The notes below the pieces were generated by a model. The model was not told the origin of the DNA. It made no database searches and saw nothing but the letters and a program-made list of their open reading frames with translations. Below are positions 47,519-57,914 of a DNA stretch of 64,000 bases, in pieces. The stretch comes from Acidobacteriota bacterium. GTDB lineage: Bacteria; Acidobacteriota; UBA890; WLXD01. Every line of letters begins with the position of its first letter. Position 1 is the first letter of the stretch. A program made the position numbers and the translations under genes. Where the stretch lies: positions 3,616,001 to 3,680,000 of the forward strand of contig CBDFKD010000002.1 in the NCBI GenBank assembly GCA_965248695.1, given 5' to 3'.

Positions 47519-48696
47519 CGGTCGACTCCGTAGCGTGTCTCGAACTGCTGCTCATACAACTGCGGCGGGCGCTCGCTGTGTGCCGGCTCGGCTCCGGCGC
47601 TGACGCTGCCACCAGGGAACAGGCGTTCGACCGCGGCGAGCGCATTCCTCTCGCCGACAACGGCCGCCAGCCGCGCCGCGAGCCGCGTCCGGACGATGGA
47701 TCTGTAGCCGCCGCCGACCACGAGCTGACGGTCGCGTCGGTAGGTGTGGCGAAGCTGTTGCAGCGTCACACCGCGTGGCCGTAGTCGTAGCGCGTAGTAG
47801 CGCAGCAATGTGCTGTATGCGGCACGATCAATCGCCCCCCCGATGCGGCCACCGAACAGGCGCTCGATGCCGGCAGCCAGGCGACTCTGGCTGCTGCAGT
47901 ACGGCTCGGTGGCGCCATCGCTGACGTCAGTTTCGGCGCGGGCGCTGGCTCGGCTGTCGGCATCCGCCCTGTCGCCGAGCCCCGCCCGGGGCCGGTTTTC
48001 GGCCGCGCGTGCATTGGGAAGTAGCTCATCCAGCCAGGTGTTGGCAGCGACGAACTCGTCGTAGACGGCTTCGCCGGCAAGCGGCACCGACTGGACGATC
48101 TCGTGAGCCGTGTAGAGATCACGCTCCTCGAGAGACAGGCTCGCCTGCGACAGGAAGAAGTTGGGGCACACCCGCTGGCGTGCGAAGCGCGGCAACCGGC
48201 GCAACAGCATCGCCGCCACCTGAACCCACCAAAGCCGGCCGGGGGCGGCGATGCAGAAGATGTCGATGTCACCGTCTCCGTCGGTGTTGTCGACCGCCAG
48301 CGAGCCACAGACGGCGACCATGCGAACGAACGGATATCGTCTTAGCGCGGCGGCATACTGGCGGGCGACCGCCCAGCGGGGCGCGCTCGCCCGTAGGCGC
48401 GCTAGCCGAGTCTCGACCGTGTGCTGGCGTCCGCTCAGGCAGATGTATTCGCCGCACCGTTCGAGGTGATCCCCGGTCAACCGGTCGATCGCCACGGCCA
48501 CCGCGCTCTGGTCAGCCGCTGCGCCAGCCAGATAGCGATGCACCTCTGGCTCGGTGAGCGGGTAGTCGAACAAGTCGGCGTAGGTGATGGTCGCCATCAC
48601 GTCGCGTTCGATGGCCGCCAGCCGGCCTGCAGAAGATGCAGCGAAGCGGTTAGCAGCGGCGGTGTCGGTCGCAGGGATGACGACGCGCGAGCTCAC
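47515..48696 (-). CDS. Pol-beta-superfamily nucleotidyltransferase-like protein
   Basis: PFVRMVAVCGSLA...DGDIDIF (GS-x-DxD), CPNFFL, DLYTAHE; N-terminal YADLFDYPLT. Confidence 0.75.
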   Translation of the reverse strand: MSSRVVIPATDTAAANRFAASSAGRLAAIERDVMATITYADLFDYPLTEPEVHRYLAGAAADQSAVAVAIDRLTGDHLERCGEYICLSGRQHTVETRLARLRASAPRWAVARQYAAALRRYPFVRMVAVCGSLAVDNTDGDGDIDIFCIAAPGRLWWVQVAAMLLRRLPRFARQRVCPNFFLSQASLSLEERDLYTAHEIVQSVPLAGEAVYDEFVAANTWLDELLPNARAAENRPRAGLGDRADADSRASARAETDVSDGATEPYCSSQSRLAAGIERLFGGRIGGAIDRAAYSTLLRYYALRLRPRGVTLQQLRHTYRRDRQLVVGGGYRSIVRTRLAARLAAVVGERNALAAVERLFPGGSVSAGAEPAHSERPPQLYEQQFETRYGVDR

Positions 48697-49787
48697 AGGA
48701 CCTCACCGTAGGCTTCAAGCGTCTCGTCGACCATCCGTTTCGCCGCGTAGGTCGTGCGCGCGCGGTGCGCTGCGGCCGTTCCCATACGCTGCCTGAGCGC
48801 AGCATTTGCCAACAACGTGCCGAGCCCCTCGACGAGCGCATCCCGATCATCGGGGGCGACCACCAGTCCGGTAATCCCATGGGCGTTCACCTCGCTCGTG
48901 CCGGTGTTCAGCTCGGTGCTCACCACCGGCGTGCCGGCGGCCATCGCCTCGACCAGGGTTATGCCGAAGGCCTCGCTGCGCAGCGTTGACGGGAGCACGA
49001 CGACGTCGGCGCGTGCGTAGTAGCCGGGCAACGCTTCGTCGGTGACCTGATCGAGGATGCGGATGCGGTCGCGCGCCGGAGAGCGCTCGATCTGCCGCTC
49101 CAGCCGGCGACGTTCGGGGCCGTCGCCCACCAGCAGCAGGCCGGCCGCGAGATGCTCCATGGCGTCGACCAGAACGGCCAGTCCCTTGTAGTGGCGGAAC
49201 CGCCCGACGAAGAGAATGATCGGCCCCTCTATGCCACTCGGCGCGCTGCCACCATTTTCCGCGCTGGCGAACCTCTCGATATCAACGCCCAGCGGCACGA
49301 CCCGGCACTTGTCCCTGACCCGACCCAGCGTCCGTGAGCTCCGCAGGTATGAGTTGCTGGTCGCGAGCACGCACCCGACATTGCGCAGGAATCGCCGTCG
49401 CAGCGGCCCGAGGAGCTTTGCCCAGGCGCGCTGCCGAACGACGTCGCTGCGGTAGGTAACGACGCAGGGGCGTCCACCACCAACCGTAAGCTCACCGAGC
49501 TCGGCCACCGGGTAGGGCATGTGCACATGCACCAGGTCGGCGCGCTCGCGTCGCAGCTGTCGTACCAGCCGCAGGCTGATGGGCGTCGAGGCGATCTCTC
49601 CGAGTCGGCCGGCGCGCACCACTCGGACACCGTGCTCGTTTCGTACCGACGTGCGCCAGTTGGGCGAGGTCGTTAGCACCGTGACCTCGAGGCCGCGCCG
49701 CGCCTGCTCCTCGGCCAGCAGGCGTACGTGACCCTCGACGCCGCCGATCACCGGAGGGTAGTCCTTGTAAACGTGGAGTATGCGCAC
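48693..49787 (-). CDS. Glycosyltransferase family 4; its first 10 codons lie in the left att repeat of an inserted element
   Basis: MRILHVYKDYPPVIGG, FVGRFRHYKG, SEAFGITLVEAM. Confidence 0.9.
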   Translation of the reverse strand: MRILHVYKDYPPVIGGVEGHVRLLAEEQARRGLEVTVLTTSPNWRTSVRNEHGVRVVRAGRLGEIASTPISLRLVRQLRRERADLVHVHMPYPVAELGELTVGGGRPCVVTYRSDVVRQRAWAKLLGPLRRRFLRNVGCVLATSNSYLRSSRTLGRVRDKCRVVPLGVDIERFASAENGGSAPSGIEGPIILFVGRFRHYKGLAVLVDAMEHLAAGLLLVGDGPERRRLERQIERSPARDRIRILDQVTDEALPGYYARADVVVLPSTLRSEAFGITLVEAMAAGTPVVSTELNTGTSEVNAHGITGLVVAPDDRDALVEGLGTLLANAALRQRMGTAAAHRARTTYAAKRMVDETLEAYGEVL

Positions 49788-49912
49788 CGGTTGATTTTAG
49801 GGGGTCGAGGTGCGCGAAAGTGAGGGGTTTTGAGCCTTTCTTGGCACCAACTTGGCACCAGCTCACATCCGGCGACAAGACGGGAGGTGCCGGGTGAGCA
49901 GGAGGGTGGCTG

Positions 49913-50035
49913 GTGAGAGCCGGCGATCTGTGGGCGACGCCGCAGTGGTTGTTCGACCGCTTGGACGTGGTGTTGAGCTTCGAGCTCGACGCTGCCGCCG
50001 ACGAAACGAACGCCAAGTGCGAGGCGTATCACCCG
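49913..50035 (+). pseudogene. Fragment of phage-type DNA N6-adenine methyltransferase
   Basis: DLWATPQWLFDRLD...FELDAAADETNAKC matches the N-terminus of the phage N6-adenine MTase family; the catalytic NPPY part is absent. Confidence 0.7.
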
Positions 50036-50591
50036 GAACCTCCGAGCTTTTTCCGTGAGCGGCCGCCGTGGTGGTCGCCGCAGCCATCCTTGCCAACCGC
50101 GGCTCCACAAGTAGCGACTCGGATTGAAGCTCACGCCCAGCACCCGGATAGCCCACCTCGATGGCGCGTAGCCGAGGTGGCCGAGGTGGAGCCGCGCGAA
50201 GTCTAGGCGCATAGTCCGGTGGGGAAAGCGCGGCGTCGTTGTATCCTCCAACCGTCTCGCCTCGATCGGGTACTTGGAGGCGATGCGGAGCATGCAGGAG
50301 GGAGGACGGCCATGATCAAGAAGTTGCTCGCGATCTTGCGCAGCGTCGGTAGGGTGTTCGTGGACTACGCGAAGAGCACCTGAAAGTGACTGGCGCGTTG
50401 CCGCGCTCCGTCCGACGCAGTGCTGAAGCCGTCAGTCACGCTGCGGCCGAGCACGACTAGTTCTTCCGATCGGATCAGCCCTCGGCGCGCATCCGCGCCA
50501 CCTCGGCCTCGGCAGCGATGTTTCCGCCCCTACAACGCCTTGTCTCTCATCTCTTAGACTGGAAAGGTTCATTGCTATTTCGACAACTGTG

Positions 50592-50621
50592 CTTGACATT
50601 TCTTATGTCAAGTTCTATTGT
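50592..50621 (+). promoter_or_regulatory. Sigma70 promoter overlapped by a palindromic operator
   Basis: TTGACA (50593-50598)-17 bp-TATTGT (50616-50621); perfect IR CTTGACAT-N5-ATGTCAAG (50592-50612). Confidence 0.8.
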
Positions 50622-50644
50622 CCTGTCGTCAAGGAGATAAGACT

Positions 50645-51082
50645 ATGGAAGAAACGATGTTGAGACGGGTTTGGAGATTCTACAGTGGGGGCGGGCTCAC
50701 CGAGCGCGATCGCCGGAGCTCGCGGAAGGTGAACCTCTGGGCCCTGGTGTGGATGTCGTGCTGGGTGGGGGTGGGCCTGCTGATCAGCAGAGAGCTCGTG
50801 CCCCCCGGCGCGGCCTCCTATGCTGCGGTGCTTGTTACGACCGCGCTCGGGGTGGGGACTCTCCTGGCCTACGTCAAGTTCCTGCGCGAGGCCGAAGAGC
50901 TAGAGCGCAAGATCCAGCTCGATGCTCTGGCGCTGGGTTTCGGCGTCGGCCTCGTCGCGATCGTCTTGTGGTCAATGCTCGCGGAACTCGGAGCCGTTGA
51001 GGGCGACCCCGCGCATCTCCTATTCTTCATGATGTTCCCATACTGCCTGGGCCTCTGGCTCGGGTTCCGGCGCTACAGTTGA
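50645..51082 (+). CDS. Four-TM membrane protein
   Basis: RBS AAGGAG; hydrophobic segments; EELERKIQLDALA motif typical of XRE-associated membrane proteins. Confidence 0.8.
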   Translation: MEETMLRRVWRFYSGGGLTERDRRSSRKVNLWALVWMSCWVGVGLLISRELVPPGAASYAAVLVTTALGVGTLLAYVKFLREAEELERKIQLDALALGFGVGLVAIVLWSMLAELGAVEGDPAHLLFFMMFPYCLGLWLGFRRYS

Positions 51083-51276
51083 AGAACCGACTCAAGGTGC
51101 TCCGCGCCGAGCGCGACTGGACCCAGGAGCGGCTGGCCCAGGAGCTCGAGGTCTCGCGGCAGACCGTCAACGCCGTCGAGACCGGGCGCTACGACCCGAG
51201 CCTTCCCCTGGCGTTTAAGATCGCCAAGCTCTTCGGCCAGCCGATCGAGGCAGTCTTCCACCCCGACGGCCACTAG
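51079..51276 (+). CDS. XRE/Cro-family HTH transcriptional regulator
   Basis: MKNRLKVLRAERDWTQERLA...VSRQTVNAVETGRYDPSLPLAFKIAKLF; coupled start (TTGA). Confidence 0.92.
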   Translation: MKNRLKVLRAERDWTQERLAQELEVSRQTVNAVETGRYDPSLPLAFKIAKLFGQPIEAVFHPDGH

Positions 51277-51500
51277 AGATGGGAAAAGACCGCGAAATGA
51301 AGGCTCTCGTCTATCCCGATATATTCATGTCCTGCTCGCCGACTCCGCTCTGGACACGACAGATCCCGCGCCCCCTTCTGCCCCCATGCGGATCGTCCAC
51401 CGACTCCAGGAAGTCACCAAATTGGCACCAAAACTCCAAACGGGCCAAGCGTGGCAGAGGCTAGCGCGTAGTCCCTGTACACATGCAGCACTCGCATCGG

Positions 51501-52636
51501 TCAGGCCACCTGTGACCTGGGAGGCGCGATCTCGCGGTAGATGTCGACCGTCGCCGCGGCGGTGCGGTCCCAGTCGAGCTCGGCGGCGCGAGCGAGGCCG
51601 GCGCGGATTCGATCGGCGCGCCCCGAGCCGTCGTCCAGCAGCTGCCGCAGGGCGGCCGCGATCGAGCCGACGTTTAGCGGATCGAAATGGATTGCCGCCG
51701 TGTCGGTGAGCTCAAGCAGACTTGCCGTTGCCGAGCAGGCTACCGGGGCGCCGCATGCCATCGCCTCGAGCACCGGAAACGCGAATCCTTCCTCTATGGA
51801 TGGGTGCACATACCCGGCGGCGCCGGAATAGAGCGCCGGCAGGATCTCGTCCGCGACTCGACCGAGAACCCGGATATTTCGGAGACGCGCGCCGGTTGCG
51901 GCAGAGCGGATCGAGCGCCCATCGCGGTGCCTCGGCCCCGCCAGCACCAGGTGCGTCGCCCGCGGCGTGTCACCGGTCGCCCAGGCATCGACCAGACGCG
52001 CCAGGTTCTTGTGGGGCCGATCGCTACCCACGTGCAAGATGTACCGCGCGGGGAGGCGTAGATCGGCGAGAACTTCGCGGCTGGTTTCCGTATCCACTGG
52101 CCGGAATCCGGCGCCGGGAGCGCCAGGCGTCACACGGATCGGCGTCGTGGTGCGTGGAAACGCCGCCCGGATCTGTGCCCCGGCTGCCGCCGAGAGCGTC
52201 GCGACGGCGTCGGCGCGCGCGCCAGGGCCAGCCGTACGAGCTGTCGAAAGGCCGCCCGGCGCGGCGTTGACAGGCCGCCGTCCCGACGTAGCGGTATCAG
52301 GTCGTAGAGGTTCACGATCATGGGGCAGGGGAGGCGCATTGGCGCCAGCACGTACGGTGCGTGGAACACGTCGAGGCCCAGGCGGCGCGCCTGCCGTGGC
52401 AGCTCCAGCTGTTCAGCCACCGAGCGCACGCGTGCCCTTACCGGAACCGGAGACAGGGCTGAAGCGTGCCCATCGCACGCAAGTTGTGTGAACGGCAGGT
52501 CGGCGCGGTGGAACGCGTACACGCGCTCAATGCCCGGCTGTCGCGTCAGCGCCGGAATCAAGTTGGCGATGTAGCGTCCGATCCCGGGATAGCGCGGGTC
52601 GACGAAGCGCGCGTCGATGCCGACGCGAAGCGTCAT
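51501..52636 (-). pseudogene. Glycosyltransferase family 4, frameshifted in a (GC)5 tract
   Basis: GIDARF...GIGRY, DVFHAPY, VGSDRPHKN, EEGFAFPVLEAMAC. Removing one GC at 52213-52222 joins the two ORFs. Confidence 0.82.
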
Positions 52637-52804
52637 CGCGCCCTGCCTCGCGTCCCCGCGGGCGGCGGCAGCGCTGCCGACCGGCCGGGGACTGAAAGCC
52701 CGGGTGCCGAAGACCAGCCGTGGCGTGCCTGAGTCTCGACCATGCGGCCAAGCCTAACAGGATCGTTGCACCGGTCTCAGGGGCCTCCCTGCTACGCTGT
52801 GGGC

Positions 52805-53782: not shown

Positions 53783-53856
<74 letters not shown>

Positions 53857-53861
53857 CTCCG

Positions 53862-56548: not shown

Positions 56549-57914
56549 TGGAGTTGATCCGCTTCCGTGGACACCTTATGGCTAACGCCAAAGGAGTCTG
56601 CGATGCGAAGAACACGACCGCCTTATCCGCCGGAGTTTCGTCGGCAGATCGTCGAGCTAGCGCGGGCAGGACGCAGCGTGCAGGAGCTCGCCGAGGAGTT
56701 CGAGCCCTCGTACTGGACGATCCGTACATGGATCAAGCAGGCGGATCGAGATGACGGGCTTAGCGCGGCTGGCCTGAGTAGCCAGGACAAGGAAGAACTA
56801 CGGCGGCTACGCCGGGAAAACCGCCAGTTGAAGACGGAGCGGGAGATCCTGGCAAAAGCCGCGGCCTGGTTCGCTCGGGAGACCGGCGCAGTACCCAAGA
56901 AGTCTTCGGGTTCGTGAGAGCTCACCAGGCCTGCTATCCGATCGCCACGATGTGCCGAGTGCTGGAGGTCTCCACCAGCGGCTACTACGCGTGGCGACAA
57001 CGCCCTAGCAGTATGCGAGCACGACAGGATGCACAGCTGCGTGAGCAGATCGAGACGATCCATCGACTTAGCCGTGCGACCTATGGCGTGCCTCGGGTAC
57101 ACGCGGAACTGGCCGCCGACGGCGTTCGGGTGGGGCGCAAACGCGTGGCACGGCTGATGAGCCAGGCGGGGCTGGAGGGTGTCAGCCGCCGCCGTCGGCT
57201 GCGCACGACGCGCCGCAGTACTGACGCGCAGCCGGTGCCCGATCTGGTGAAACGTGACTTCGCGGTCGGTGCACCCGATCGCCTGTGGGTTGCCGACATC
57301 ACGTACGTCTCTACGTGGTCGGGGTTCTTGTACCTGGCGGTGGTGATGGATGCCTTCAGCCGGCGGGTGGTGGGCTGGTCGATGGCCAACCACCTGCGTA
57401 CCGAACTGGTGCTTGAGGCGCTCAACATGGCGATCTGGCAACGCCGACCTGAGAGCGTGATCCACCACTCTGATCAGGGCACGCAATACACCTCGATCGC
57501 CTTCGGCCACCGCTGCAAGCAGCTCGGTGTACGTCCCTCGACCGGATCAGCTCGCGACTGCTACGACAACGCCATGGCCGAGAGCTTCTTCGCGACGCTA
57601 GAGACGGAGCTGCTATGGCGGCAGAGCTTCAAGAGCCAGGTCGAAGCCCGCATGGCCGTGTTCGAGTTCATCGAGGGGTTCTACAACCCACGACGGCGCC
57701 ACTCGGCGCTCGGAAACCAATCCCCAATCGCCTACGAGAGGAGCTACTCCGAGACCCCGTCACCGGCTGTGGAAACTGCCGTACCCATGCAGATCGCGCC
57801 GCGATCCGCACCGCCACTTGGAAGCCGCTCTGCGGCTCCCACGAGTTCCCACAGCACTACGACTACGGCCTCAAATCCAAGCGTTCAACTGTCCACCGAA
57901 ACGGGGTAACTCCA
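56549..57914 (+). mobile_element. IS3-family element 'IS-C'
   Basis: IRs TGGAGTTGATCCGCTTCCGTGGACA / TGGAGTTACCCCGTTTCGGTGGACA. Confidence 0.92.
56603..57909 (+). CDS. IS-C transposase OrfA (56603-56917) + OrfB (56914-57909)
   Basis: YPPEFRRQIV, EREILAKAAAWFA (A-AAA-G shift motif), WVADITY, HHSDQG, DNAMAESFF. Confidence 0.9.

Follow-up and report, generated by a model that had tools for sequence, protein, structure and literature searches.

The window, a 64-kb stretch of DNA, comes from the genome of a soil bacterium of the Acidobacteriota (G000). It contains an insert in the first ten codons of a GT4 (sugar-transferase) gene, and the operon is read from the minus strand. The first GT4 gene, upstream in the operon, lies at 51501..52636. 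It encodes the Glyco_transf_4 and Glycos_transf_1 halves recognized by Pfam, in two ORFs (52636-52130 and 52133-51501). Alignment with the relative G003 traces the split to 2 additional bp (GC) at about 52221-52222. The stop codon of this gene, TGA (51503-51501), is followed by CCG and then by ATGCGAGTGCTGCATGTGTACAGGGACTAC at 51497-51468. The latter, on the bacterial side of attL, is the displaced native 5' end of the second GT4 gene and matches the native start in G003 at 28/30 positions. The reading frame of this stub is 27 codons long and ends at a stop at about 51414.

The body of the second GT4 gene (48693..49757, minus strand) was delimited from ORF calls, Pfam, and comparison with relatives. 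It is opened by GTGCGCATACTCCACGTTTACAAGGACTAC at 49787-49758 on the minus strand, a recoded 5' end supplied by the element. This segment has a GTG start and contains the right core copy, TACAAGGACTAC (49758-49769). The stub and the recoded start share 22 of 30 nt and encode MRVLHVYRDY and MRILHVYKDY, respectively, and 1,710 bp separate the two starts. With the supplied start, the GT4 ORF is intact at 364 aa, and it is intact in occupied and empty genomes alike. The target core falls within the YK(D)YPPV motif of the GT4 N terminus, which is conserved in the nine genomes compared. Both insert junctions are assembled alike in Logan contigs, since these span 49300-50494 and 50492-51900 with 0 differences from the window; the sample may be the window's own source and not an independent one.

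Two B12-radical-SAM enzymes and one methyltransferase are encoded downstream of the second GT4 gene. Both sugar transferases are generic GT4 proteins that fall under every NCBIfam cut-off. The first-pass annotation had assigned the operon a possible role in surface-glycan or receptor synthesis, and these genes do not bear it out.

A direct core repeat is present at both ends of the insert, inside the 30-nt repeat formed by the stub and the recoded start. The sequence TACARGGACTAC occurs exactly twice in the window, at 51468-51479 and 49758-49769 (0 expected from 100 shuffles). The left core copy, in the stub, is TACAGGGACTAC (51468..51479, minus strand), and it carries an A>G change. A pair of short motifs flanks each core copy. 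The left arm, TTGGTGCCAA-T-TTGGTGAC, lies at 51411..51431 on the minus strand; it was found by motif search and has related loci elsewhere (L025 and L030). The right arm, at 49841..49861 on the minus strand, contains two TTGGTGCCAA-type sites 11 bp apart (CTGGTGCCAA-G-TTGGTGCCAA) and is identical in a second genome, G004. The sequence common to both arms, TGGTGCCAANTTGGTG, is likewise found exactly twice in the window (49845-49860 and 51415-51430, both minus strand; 0 expected). The shared core and the 11-bp-spaced pairs at both junctions had been picked out from the window by eye of a model, and both hold.

The arm sequence GGTGCCAANTTGGTG has three exact matches in the 5.9-Mb genome, two in the window and one outside. 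The third match falls in a truncated tyrosine integrase, in its 3' end. A paired right-arm-like site lies 139 nt away from it, and this attP-like layout can be aligned with both junctions of the window. In the related loci L025 and L030, the arm motif lies in the final codons of a tyrosine integrase. The attP-like site of L025 was compared with G002, G003, and G004, which lack a counterpart of the region beyond about L025:8840. The arm motif is absent from G001, G002, G003, and G007 and occurs once in G004, at attR. The paired TTGGTGCCAA motifs evidently belong to the element, and they may bind protein.

Between the right arm and the new start is a conserved box, GACCCCCTAAAATCAACC (49789..49806, minus strand), in which a -10-like TAAAAT (49799-49794) ends 6 nt before the GTG. 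G000 and G004 agree at 18/18 positions of the box. No promoter was called before the new GTG start by a sigma-70 consensus scan. The TAAAAT box may act as the promoter of GT4, which would give a near-leaderless mRNA. The uncoupling and rewiring of the operon proposed in the first-pass annotation are putative, and no RNA run was listed as containing the locus.

The site is empty in two genomes of the same genus, G003 and G002. In both, the matches to the upstream GT and to the GT4 body abut. They overlap by 35 bp in G003 and by 29 bp in G002, which is the duplicated segment. The junctions read as the left side of the window's attL joined to the right side of its attR, so that the empty-site comparison gave the left flank plus the right flank, as expected of an insertion. 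No kilobase-scale insert is present in G008 and G014. Across the order, the GT4 5' region was found in 9 of 26 genomes. Seven of these nine lack the arm DNA, which precedes GT4 in G000 and G004 only.

G004 contains a different insert at the same GT4 codons. It measures about 7.2 kb (7,193 bp from start to start). Its cargo includes a YHYH/FN3 protein, a hybrid histidine kinase, and small ORFs. Its stub is 26/27 identical to the native start in G002. The right ends of the two inserts are identical at 68 of 80 positions (85%), with 27/27 in the arm block, 18/18 in the box, and 23/34 in the spacer. The recoded starts are identical at 26 of 30 positions; all four differences are synonymous and the same ten residues are encoded. 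G004 has no left arm, and past its core only about 15 nt of weak resemblance follow. The two inserts have in common only this right end of roughly 110 nt. Together with the empty sites in G003 and G002, the right end in G004 confirms that an insertion at the first codons of GT4 brought a recoded replacement 5' end.

The empty sites also rule out that the stub derives from a deleted GT paralogue, since relatives have the two gene parts without the insert. Paralogues of GT4 are frequent, and these genomes have several weak GT4 matches elsewhere. The stub as a paralogue remnant, or an insert brought by transposition or illegitimate recombination next to a coincidental repeat, is nevertheless a highly improbable origin. 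In G003 and G002, the empty site lines up with the stub plus the body, and the same recoded copy is found at the same codons in the second insert. The window insert contains neither a transposase nor terminal inverted repeats. The 30-nt repeat is imperfect and yet preserves the codons, unlike a target-site duplication. A transposon or insertion sequence was rejected on the same grounds.

The two occupied genomes are not sisters, as judged from GT4 identity, which is 84.3% between G000 and G003, 91.9% between G004 and G002, and about 74% across the pairs. Against the native start in G003, the stub in G000 has 2 differences in 30 sites, whereas four-fold sites in the gene match at only 70.4% (binomial P = 0.0024). 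Against the native start in G002, the stub in G004 has 1 difference in 27 sites, and four-fold sites match at 83.4% (P = 0.047). Both stubs have thus changed far less than neutral positions in the gene beside them, so that each insertion dates from after its pair of genomes split. With the occupied genomes in separate pairs and almost no change in the stubs, the GT4 start was probably hit by site-specific insertion at least twice.

The alternative is that an element entered only once, long ago, in the ancestor of the genus, was then excised precisely on the way to G003 and G002, and decayed along separate paths in G000 and G004. In line with such an age, G000 and G004 have different third positions at 4 of 10 codons of the recoded start. 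The right-end spacer is 68% identical, which is not significantly above the 49.7% of the host four-fold sites (Fisher P = 0.06). By that measure alone, the data are compatible with a single old insertion that was later lost twice by precise excision. This history would require the two excisions to be independent, and the low divergence of the stubs from the sister genomes' native starts argues against it. We consider it improbable and retain at least two insertions.

The interior of the window insert contains fragments and small cargo genes. An ORF on the plus strand (49913-50206) begins with an N-terminal fragment of a Dam-type DNA N6-adenine methyltransferase (49913..50035, plus strand; Pfam PF05869, residues 3-41, E 1.3e-8). 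It also matches the PHROG DNA methyltransferase family phrog_111 (E 2.3e-11). A copy of the 3' end of a chromosomal gene (125 bp) lies at 50397..50521. It is 95% identical to G000:C2:1370878-1371000, in a 324-aa gene, and short-read contigs break at it. This copy evidently marks internal scrambling of the insert. A 154-aa membrane-like protein with no family match is encoded at 50618-51082 on the plus strand. The feature was entered as 50591..51082, as a promoter-like site ahead of the ORF overlaps a palindrome with a 9-bp stem (50591-50621). The last cargo gene encodes a small HTH_3 (XRE-type) regulator (51079..51276, plus strand; Pfam PF01381, E 1.3e-14), which also matches PHROG repressor families. 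Rfam returned a single chance snoRNA-like match on the insert, far under threshold.

No virion, lysis, or replication genes were found in the window insert. The methyltransferase fragment and the HTH regulator are its only matches to phage families, and an intact prophage was rejected. The methyltransferase had been described as a phage fragment; Pfam and PHROG uphold the fragment, and a phage nature of the element is not supported, as structural genes are missing.

The integrase is lost, as had been proposed. None of the insert ORFs encodes a Phage_integrase domain by Pfam. Eight related integrases, used as tblastn queries, had no significant match in either insert, that of the window or that of G004. 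The left arm motif is the only integrase trace in the inserts.

Larger collections were searched for an intact form. The exact arm 19-mer had 0 matches in IMG/VR, and the integrase fragment of L030 had no relative there. A 21-mer of the box plus the start had 0 matches in IMG/VR and 0 in JGI metagenomes. The arm, gap, and back-translated start, used as a pattern, had 0 matches in both. A 27-mer allowed up to 3 mismatches was found only in G000 and G004 among 401 genomes of the phylum. The full-length elements with an integrase that the first-pass annotation had anticipated at GT4 5' ends did not turn up in IMG/VR, JGI metagenomes, or the 401 phylum genomes, and neither did an intact element or an attP with a GT mimic. 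The excision joint 49758/51468 was not found in contigs of four runs from one sample, and contigs drop rare forms. Two apparent skips in these contigs have sides of 21-23 nt and lie away from the att sites.

The inserts could be still-mobile miniature elements, made of att ends and variable cargo, that are moved by a helper integrase and never had an integrase of their own. In favor of this, an integrase is missing from each of the two different inserts at this site, which have only the roughly 110-nt right end in common, and the window insert retains arm motifs on both sides. Several observations argue against this. G004 has lost the left arm. The gene fragments in the window interior, namely the methyltransferase N terminus and the 125-bp host gene end, are typical of decay. 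An intact integrase with the arm motif is absent from G000 and G004; the candidates, L025 and L030, are both truncated. The missing excision joint adds weak evidence. We think that miniature elements are an unlikely explanation and prefer decay. The first-pass annotation took the att sites to look usable in trans, which would be doubtful given that no cognate integrase was found in the collections searched, that the core in the stub carries the A>G change, and that the left arm is gone in G004.

The insert might also be an active switch, in which reversible excision couples and uncouples the GT4 and radical-SAM genes from the upstream promoter. The precedent is SpyCI, a phage-like chromosomal island of Streptococcus pyogenes. 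According to two reports (PMC3430984, PMC4689407), it is a site-specific tyrosine-integrase island at the 5' end of mutL. It cuts mutL, the second gene of its operon, off from the upstream gene and the promoter. The position at the 5' end of an operon's second gene is the same here. The window insert encodes no integrase or excisionase, the contigs contain no excision joint, and the core copy in the stub carries the A>G change. Such a switch is very doubtful at this locus.

Taken as a whole, the 1,710 bp are best explained, with good confidence, as a decayed tyrosine-integrase-type element inside GT4 that supplied its own start and whose integrase has since been deleted. The element would have recombined with the chromosome inside GT4 codons 7-10, at the core TACAAGGACTAC. 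Its attachment site would have borne its own first ten codons, with a GTG start, synonymous recoding, and V3I, preceded by about 80 nt of element DNA. Integration would have pushed the native start aside as a dead 27-codon stub beside the upstream GT. The GT4 ORF would have been kept intact behind the right end of the element. The paired TTGGTGCCAA motifs would have served as arm or accessory sites to the left and right of the core, and a tyrosine integrase presumably catalyzed the reaction. In relatives this integrase ends inside the left arm motif. Its gene would have been deleted later and the interior turned into the present patchwork, so that the insert would now be fixed.

The arm motif was also found outside the phylum. 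The exact 19-mer of the arm pair occurs at 23 loci of other phyla where it is not explained as conserved coding sequence. In 4 of the 23, a full tRNA lies no more than 150 nt away, and fragments of the tRNA-Lys anticodon arm lie near it in 4 of the 23. A strict T-loop regular expression matched 5/23. In Nitrospira-type loci, a tRNA-Lys(CTT) fragment beginning in the anticodon loop lies some 125 nt from the motif. Tyrosine recombinase ORFs end beside the 19-mer in L046 and L066. The arm-adjacent integrases of different phyla are only remotely alike (BLASTP E 0.004). An HMM of the G000 integrases did not match any ORF of 31 cross-phylum loci. No partial tRNA was found near the arms in 17 cross-phylum loci at E <= 0.01 (Rfam). 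A full-text literature search with the 10-mer motif gave nothing on integrases among the matches listed. The recoded start mimic is closest to the native start of another genus (26/30 to G005).

A broader reading would make the TTGGTGCCAA pairs part of one cross-phylum integrase/att system that normally uses tRNA anticodon loops (tRNA-Lys in the Nitrospira type). The acidobacterial branch would have been retargeted by a captured gene-start mimic. The mimic and the TAAAAT box would then drive the second half of the operon separately and nearly leaderless, and the integrase-less inserts would still be substrates for a helper integrase. We regard this as speculative and on balance unlikely.

Williams is said to have described, in 2002, tRNA-targeting genomic islands with a crossover in the anticodon loop. 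Islands of this kind (Islander/TIGER type) resemble the present case in the paired TTGGTGCCAA motifs at about one helical turn and in the logic of restoring the target. They differ in that the target is a tRNA and not the first codons of a protein gene, and integrases next to the motif in other phyla bear only a remote similarity to those of G000. In Escherichia coli, phage 21 and e14 integrate at the 3' end of icd and carry a replacement gene end. They too have a diverged, function-preserving copy of the gene end, an intact gene, and a displaced fragment at the other junction. The 3' end is replaced there and the 5' end here. Because the 5' end is replaced, the element must also bring a start codon and expression signals.

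The TIGER/Islander database places 43.4% of 1.75 million islands in protein-coding sequences (PMC12424338), and protein targets are therefore common. The closest analogue is SpyCI at mutL, and the present insert is of a known kind, the target-restoring integrative elements, at a new target. Both target the 5' end of an operon's second gene. SpyCIM5, in the same accounts (PMC3430984, PMC4689407), is decayed, with its integrase deleted, and fixed, and its downstream expression is rescued by an island-borne promoter; the insert described here has likewise lost its integrase and is probably fixed. The host and target are Streptococcus and mutL there and Acidobacteriota and a GT4 gene here. Ten recoded codons and a new start are supplied here. 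No integrase-bearing member of the present kind was found in the collections searched.

Many islands lie in coding sequences, and SpyCI offers a direct analogue. This locus is therefore of value as a new case and a lead and not as a new mechanism. It is a sequence-level case, from a poorly studied soil phylum, of a 5'-end-targeting element that keeps a protein gene intact through a recoded start. The defined attB, in the conserved YKDYPPV-coding GT4 core, and the arm motif could aid island mapping and integrase mining in Acidobacteriota, Nitrospira, and other phyla. It also illustrates how such insertions may break translational coupling inside an operon.

The upstream glycosyltransferase (GT) ends with a TGA stop at 51503-51501 on the minus strand. 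It is followed by CCG and then by the native start of the GT4 gene, ATGCGAGTGCTGCATGTGTACAGGGACTAC (51497-51468). The GT4 body begins 1,710 bp beyond this native start, at 49787-49758 on the same strand, with GTGCGCATACTCCACGTTTACAAGGACTAC. The two 30-mers share 22 of 30 positions and encode MRVLHVYRDY (the stub) and MRILHVYKDY (the GT4 body). The stub reading frame reaches a stop after 27 codons. The recoded start opens an uninterrupted reading frame for a 364-aa GT4 protein, in which both a Glyco_transf_4 and a Glycos_transf_1 domain are recognised. The sequence thus bears out the orphaned native start and recoded GT4 start described in the first-pass annotation. It also contains the shared core and arm-like pairs proposed for both junctions (arms at 51411-51431 and 49841-49861). 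Within the 64-kb window the 12-mer TACARGGACTAC is found only at the two junctions, once at each and on the same strand, and so is the 16-mer TGGTGCCAANTTGGTG; 100 shuffles gave an expectation of 0 copies for both. A direct core repeat (51468-51479 and 49758-49769), one mark of an integrative element, is therefore present at both ends. In the stub, the core copy differs by an A>G change. Both junctions were spanned with 0 differences by short-read contigs from a sample that may be the window's own source.

We searched 41 related genomes with window positions 48700-52640 as the query. The empty site predicted for relatives was retrieved from two genomes of the same genus, with left and right flanks joined. 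The upstream-GT and GT4-body matches abut with a 35-bp overlap in G003 and overlap by 29 bp in G002. Both junctions read from the stop through 4-5 nt into ATGCG(A/G)GTGCTGCACGTGTACAAGGA(C/T)TACCCCCCGGTG, a sequence equal to the stub side of the window followed by its gene side. The GT4 5' region was found in 9 of 26 genomes across the order, and arm DNA preceded GT4 only in the window's genome and in G004, a third same-genus genome. No kilobase-scale insert was found at the GT-GT junction of two further relatives (G008 and G014). The larger element expected at the same site in a relative was retrieved from G004. It is a different insert at the same GT4 codons and measures 7,193 bp start to start. 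Both an empty site and reuse of that site, as in integrative elements, were therefore found. The empty sites and the second insert rule out the alternative in which relatives have no empty site and the stub derives from a deleted paralogue.

The G004 stub (ATGCGGGTTCTGCACGTGTACAAGGAT) is identical to the native start of G002 at 26 of 27 positions. The right ends of the G004 and window inserts have 68 of 80 nt in common. The arm block (27/27 nt) and the 18-nt box GACCCCCTAAAATCAACC (18/18) are identical, and a 34-nt spacer holds 11 of the 12 differences. The recoded starts are identical at 26 of 30 positions, and all four differences are synonymous. Past the ~110-nt common right end the two inserts are unrelated. 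The G004 insert encodes a YHYH/FN3 protein, small ORFs, an HTH protein and a hybrid histidine kinase. It lacks the left arm. It also contains three 78-nt direct repeats (76-94% identical; L016 3886-3963, 5738-5815 and 6535-6612), each preceding a 27-nt repeat, with copies spaced through the 7.2 kb.

The GT4 bodies are 84.3% identical between the window's genome and G003, 91.9% between G004 and G002, and ~74% between the pairs. Each occupied genome is therefore sister to an empty one. Between the window stub and the G003 native start 2 of 30 sites differ, whereas four-fold sites of the flanking gene are only 70.4% identical between the two genomes (binomial P = 0.0024). For the G004 stub and the G002 native start the figures are 1 of 27 and 83.4% (P = 0.047). 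A stub that had been useless since before the pair split should have drifted more, so these comparisons make it more likely that related elements inserted twice, independently, as site specificity implies. The opposite view, in which one ancient insertion was later excised precisely in two lines, is less likely, although the right-end spacer does not speak against it, being 68% identical between the inserts against 49.7% at host four-fold sites (Fisher P = 0.06).

The core region, YK(D)YPPV, is conserved in 9 of 9 GT4 genes compared. The element recombined inside GT4 codons 7-10. From its side of the site came a GTG start with ten codons preserving the enzyme's N-terminal strand, and the native start remained as a dead stub. 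We regard each of these steps as established. The recoded start differs from the native start of G003 by one residue (V3I). The native GT4 start of G005, from another genus of the family (L072, G005:C5 ~89928-90014), is GTG initiated with Ile at codon 3. The recoded start is identical to it at 26 of 30 positions, compared with 24 of 30 for G003, and is nearer to it than to the native starts of its present hosts. This hints that the gene-start mimic may have been captured from a G005-like host.

The native start lies 3-5 nt past the upstream GT stop, behind an AGGTGG in the end of that gene. The recoded start has no coupling to that stop or to AGGTGG. The 18-nt box, perfectly conserved between both inserts, includes a TAAAAT ending 6 nt before the GTG, and this would put the transcription start at or beside the start codon. 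A generic sigma-70 scan called no promoter before the GTG. Within the insert the scan detected no terminator on the minus strand, so read-through across it is possible and the uncoupling of the operon is only putative.

The interior of the window insert is a patchwork. It contains the methyltransferase fragment noted in the first pass, an N-terminus at 49913-50035 on the plus strand (Pfam Dam, E 1.3e-8; PHROG DNA methyltransferase, E 2.3e-11). Apart from this fragment, nothing in the insert points to a phage, and its proposed phage nature found no support. A further 125-bp segment duplicates, at 95% identity, the 3' end of a gene that lies 2.3 Mb away on the chromosome. A membrane-like protein and an XRE-type regulator form a self-contained pair on the opposite strand, behind a promoter-like site, TTGACA-17-TATTGT (50591-50621), embedded in a palindrome with a 9-bp stem. 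The palindrome is probably the operator of the HTH regulator itself. A 40-50-nt stretch at 50122-50172 matches several places in G002, G003, G004 and G007 (another genus) at 84-93% identity, and also G000:C2:5715504 in the window's own genome. ARAGORN found no tRNA in this stretch. An integrase domain is absent from every ORF of the insert, and a tblastn search using eight related integrases found no integrase remains in it. The left arm is its sole integrase-side remnant. With a patchwork interior and no integrase, the insert would be immobile on its own.

The arm motif GGTGCCAANTTGGTG has three exact matches in the 5.9-Mb genome; besides the two window copies there is one at C2:5554114. It has 0 matches in G001, G002, G003 and G007 and one in G004, at the right end. 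Among these genomes it is confined to the occupied ones and therefore travels with the insert; the arms follow the sequence pattern of an integrative element. At C2:5554114 the match falls within the final codons (...DVTNLAPE...) of a gene for a tyrosine recombinase, which an IS3 element has truncated. This attP-like arrangement (G000:C2:5553970-5555510; L025 9970-11510; L021) has a paired TTGGGGCCAA-A-TTGGGGCCAA site 139 nt from TGGTGCCAAGTTGGTGAC in the integrase 3' end. The order is right arm, core region, left arm and integrase 3' end, and the locus aligns with both window junctions. Its spacing and order match the expected product of joining the two junctions. The region has no counterpart in G002-G004. 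A second truncated integrase has a tail 71% identical, likewise with the arm motif in its last codons. No intact integrase with the motif was found in the window's genome or G004. Near-identical 376-aa tyrosine integrases are present in two genera (G000:C2:2774659, L039; several in G007:C1 and G007:C2, L028, L031 and L034), which suggests a recently shared multi-copy element.

A scan for the exact arm-pair 19-mer GGTGCCAAGTTGGTGCCAA, with one genome per species, retrieved 31 loci (L041-L071). Seven have one common conserved coding context and look coincidental, and another is a right end of the G004 type. That leaves 23, in records of Nitrospira-type, acidobacterial, verrucomicrobial, myxobacterial, actinobacterial and alphaproteobacterial origin, which cover at least six phyla. 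tRNA genes or tRNA-Lys(CTT) anticodon-loop fragments often lie ~70-135 nt from the 19-mer. Full tRNA genes are within 150 nt of the arms at 4 of these 23 loci, and exact 17-18-nt matches to the tRNA-Lys(CTT) anticodon arm occur at 4. A T-loop-like motif lies within 260 nt at 5 of the 23, compared with 1 of 938 control windows. Rfam called no partial tRNAs at E <= 0.01 in 17 of the cross-phylum loci, which counts against such an association. Tyrosine-recombinase ORFs end beside the arms at L046 (Pfam E 1.4e-7) and L066 (partial, under the Pfam cut-off). Also on the negative side, the L046 integrase is only remotely similar to those of the window's genome, and the integrases beside arms are only remotely related to one another. 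The motif is conserved between phyla while the adjoining integrases diverge. These contexts clearly link it to integrative elements; it may be bound by the arm domain of an integrase, by an excisionase or by another factor. A full-text literature search with the arm-motif 10-mer gave nothing relevant among the matches listed.

Both GTs are generic GT4 enzymes, under every NCBIfam cut-off. Downstream of GT4 are a 393-aa protein without a family, two B12-binding radical-SAM enzymes and a methyltransferase. The surface-glycan or receptor role proposed for the GTs is unsupported and, with generic GTs and these neighbours, is a guess. In the upstream GT4 gene (51501-52636, minus strand), a (GC)n run (52221-52222) is two bases longer than in the intact G003 counterpart, which breaks the reading frame into two ORFs. 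The gene may be a pseudogene or a slippage variant, or the assembly may be wrong here. About 5 kb away from the insert, 56914-57909 encodes an IS3-family transposase (rve, HTH_21). The tRNA-Met gene at 53783-53857 has a syntenic counterpart in G004.

The evidence supports a site-specific element with the first GT4 codons as its target and a recoded start as its replacement for them. It does not support the extensions to a phage, a receptor operon, trans-usable sites and a living family. The core repeat, empty site, arm pattern and site reuse were all found and the integrase is missing, so we class the insert as a remnant whose mode of action is, or was, that of an integrative element. Contigs from four runs of one sample, which can drop rare forms, showed no excision joint. 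At icd, phage 21 and e14 replace the end of a protein gene with an element-borne diverged copy. The closest analogue is SpyCI, a group of phage-like chromosomal islands of Streptococcus pyogenes that integrate by site-specific recombination at the 5' end of mutL, the second gene of an operon, and so part it from the upstream gene and promoter. Papers on SpyCI describe a decayed member with its integrase deleted that is fixed, and an island-borne promoter that rescues mutL (PMC3430984; PMC4689407). TIGER/Islander placed 43.4% of ~1.75 million mapped islands in protein-coding sequences (PMC12424338). This kind of element is already known, and the present case adds another member.
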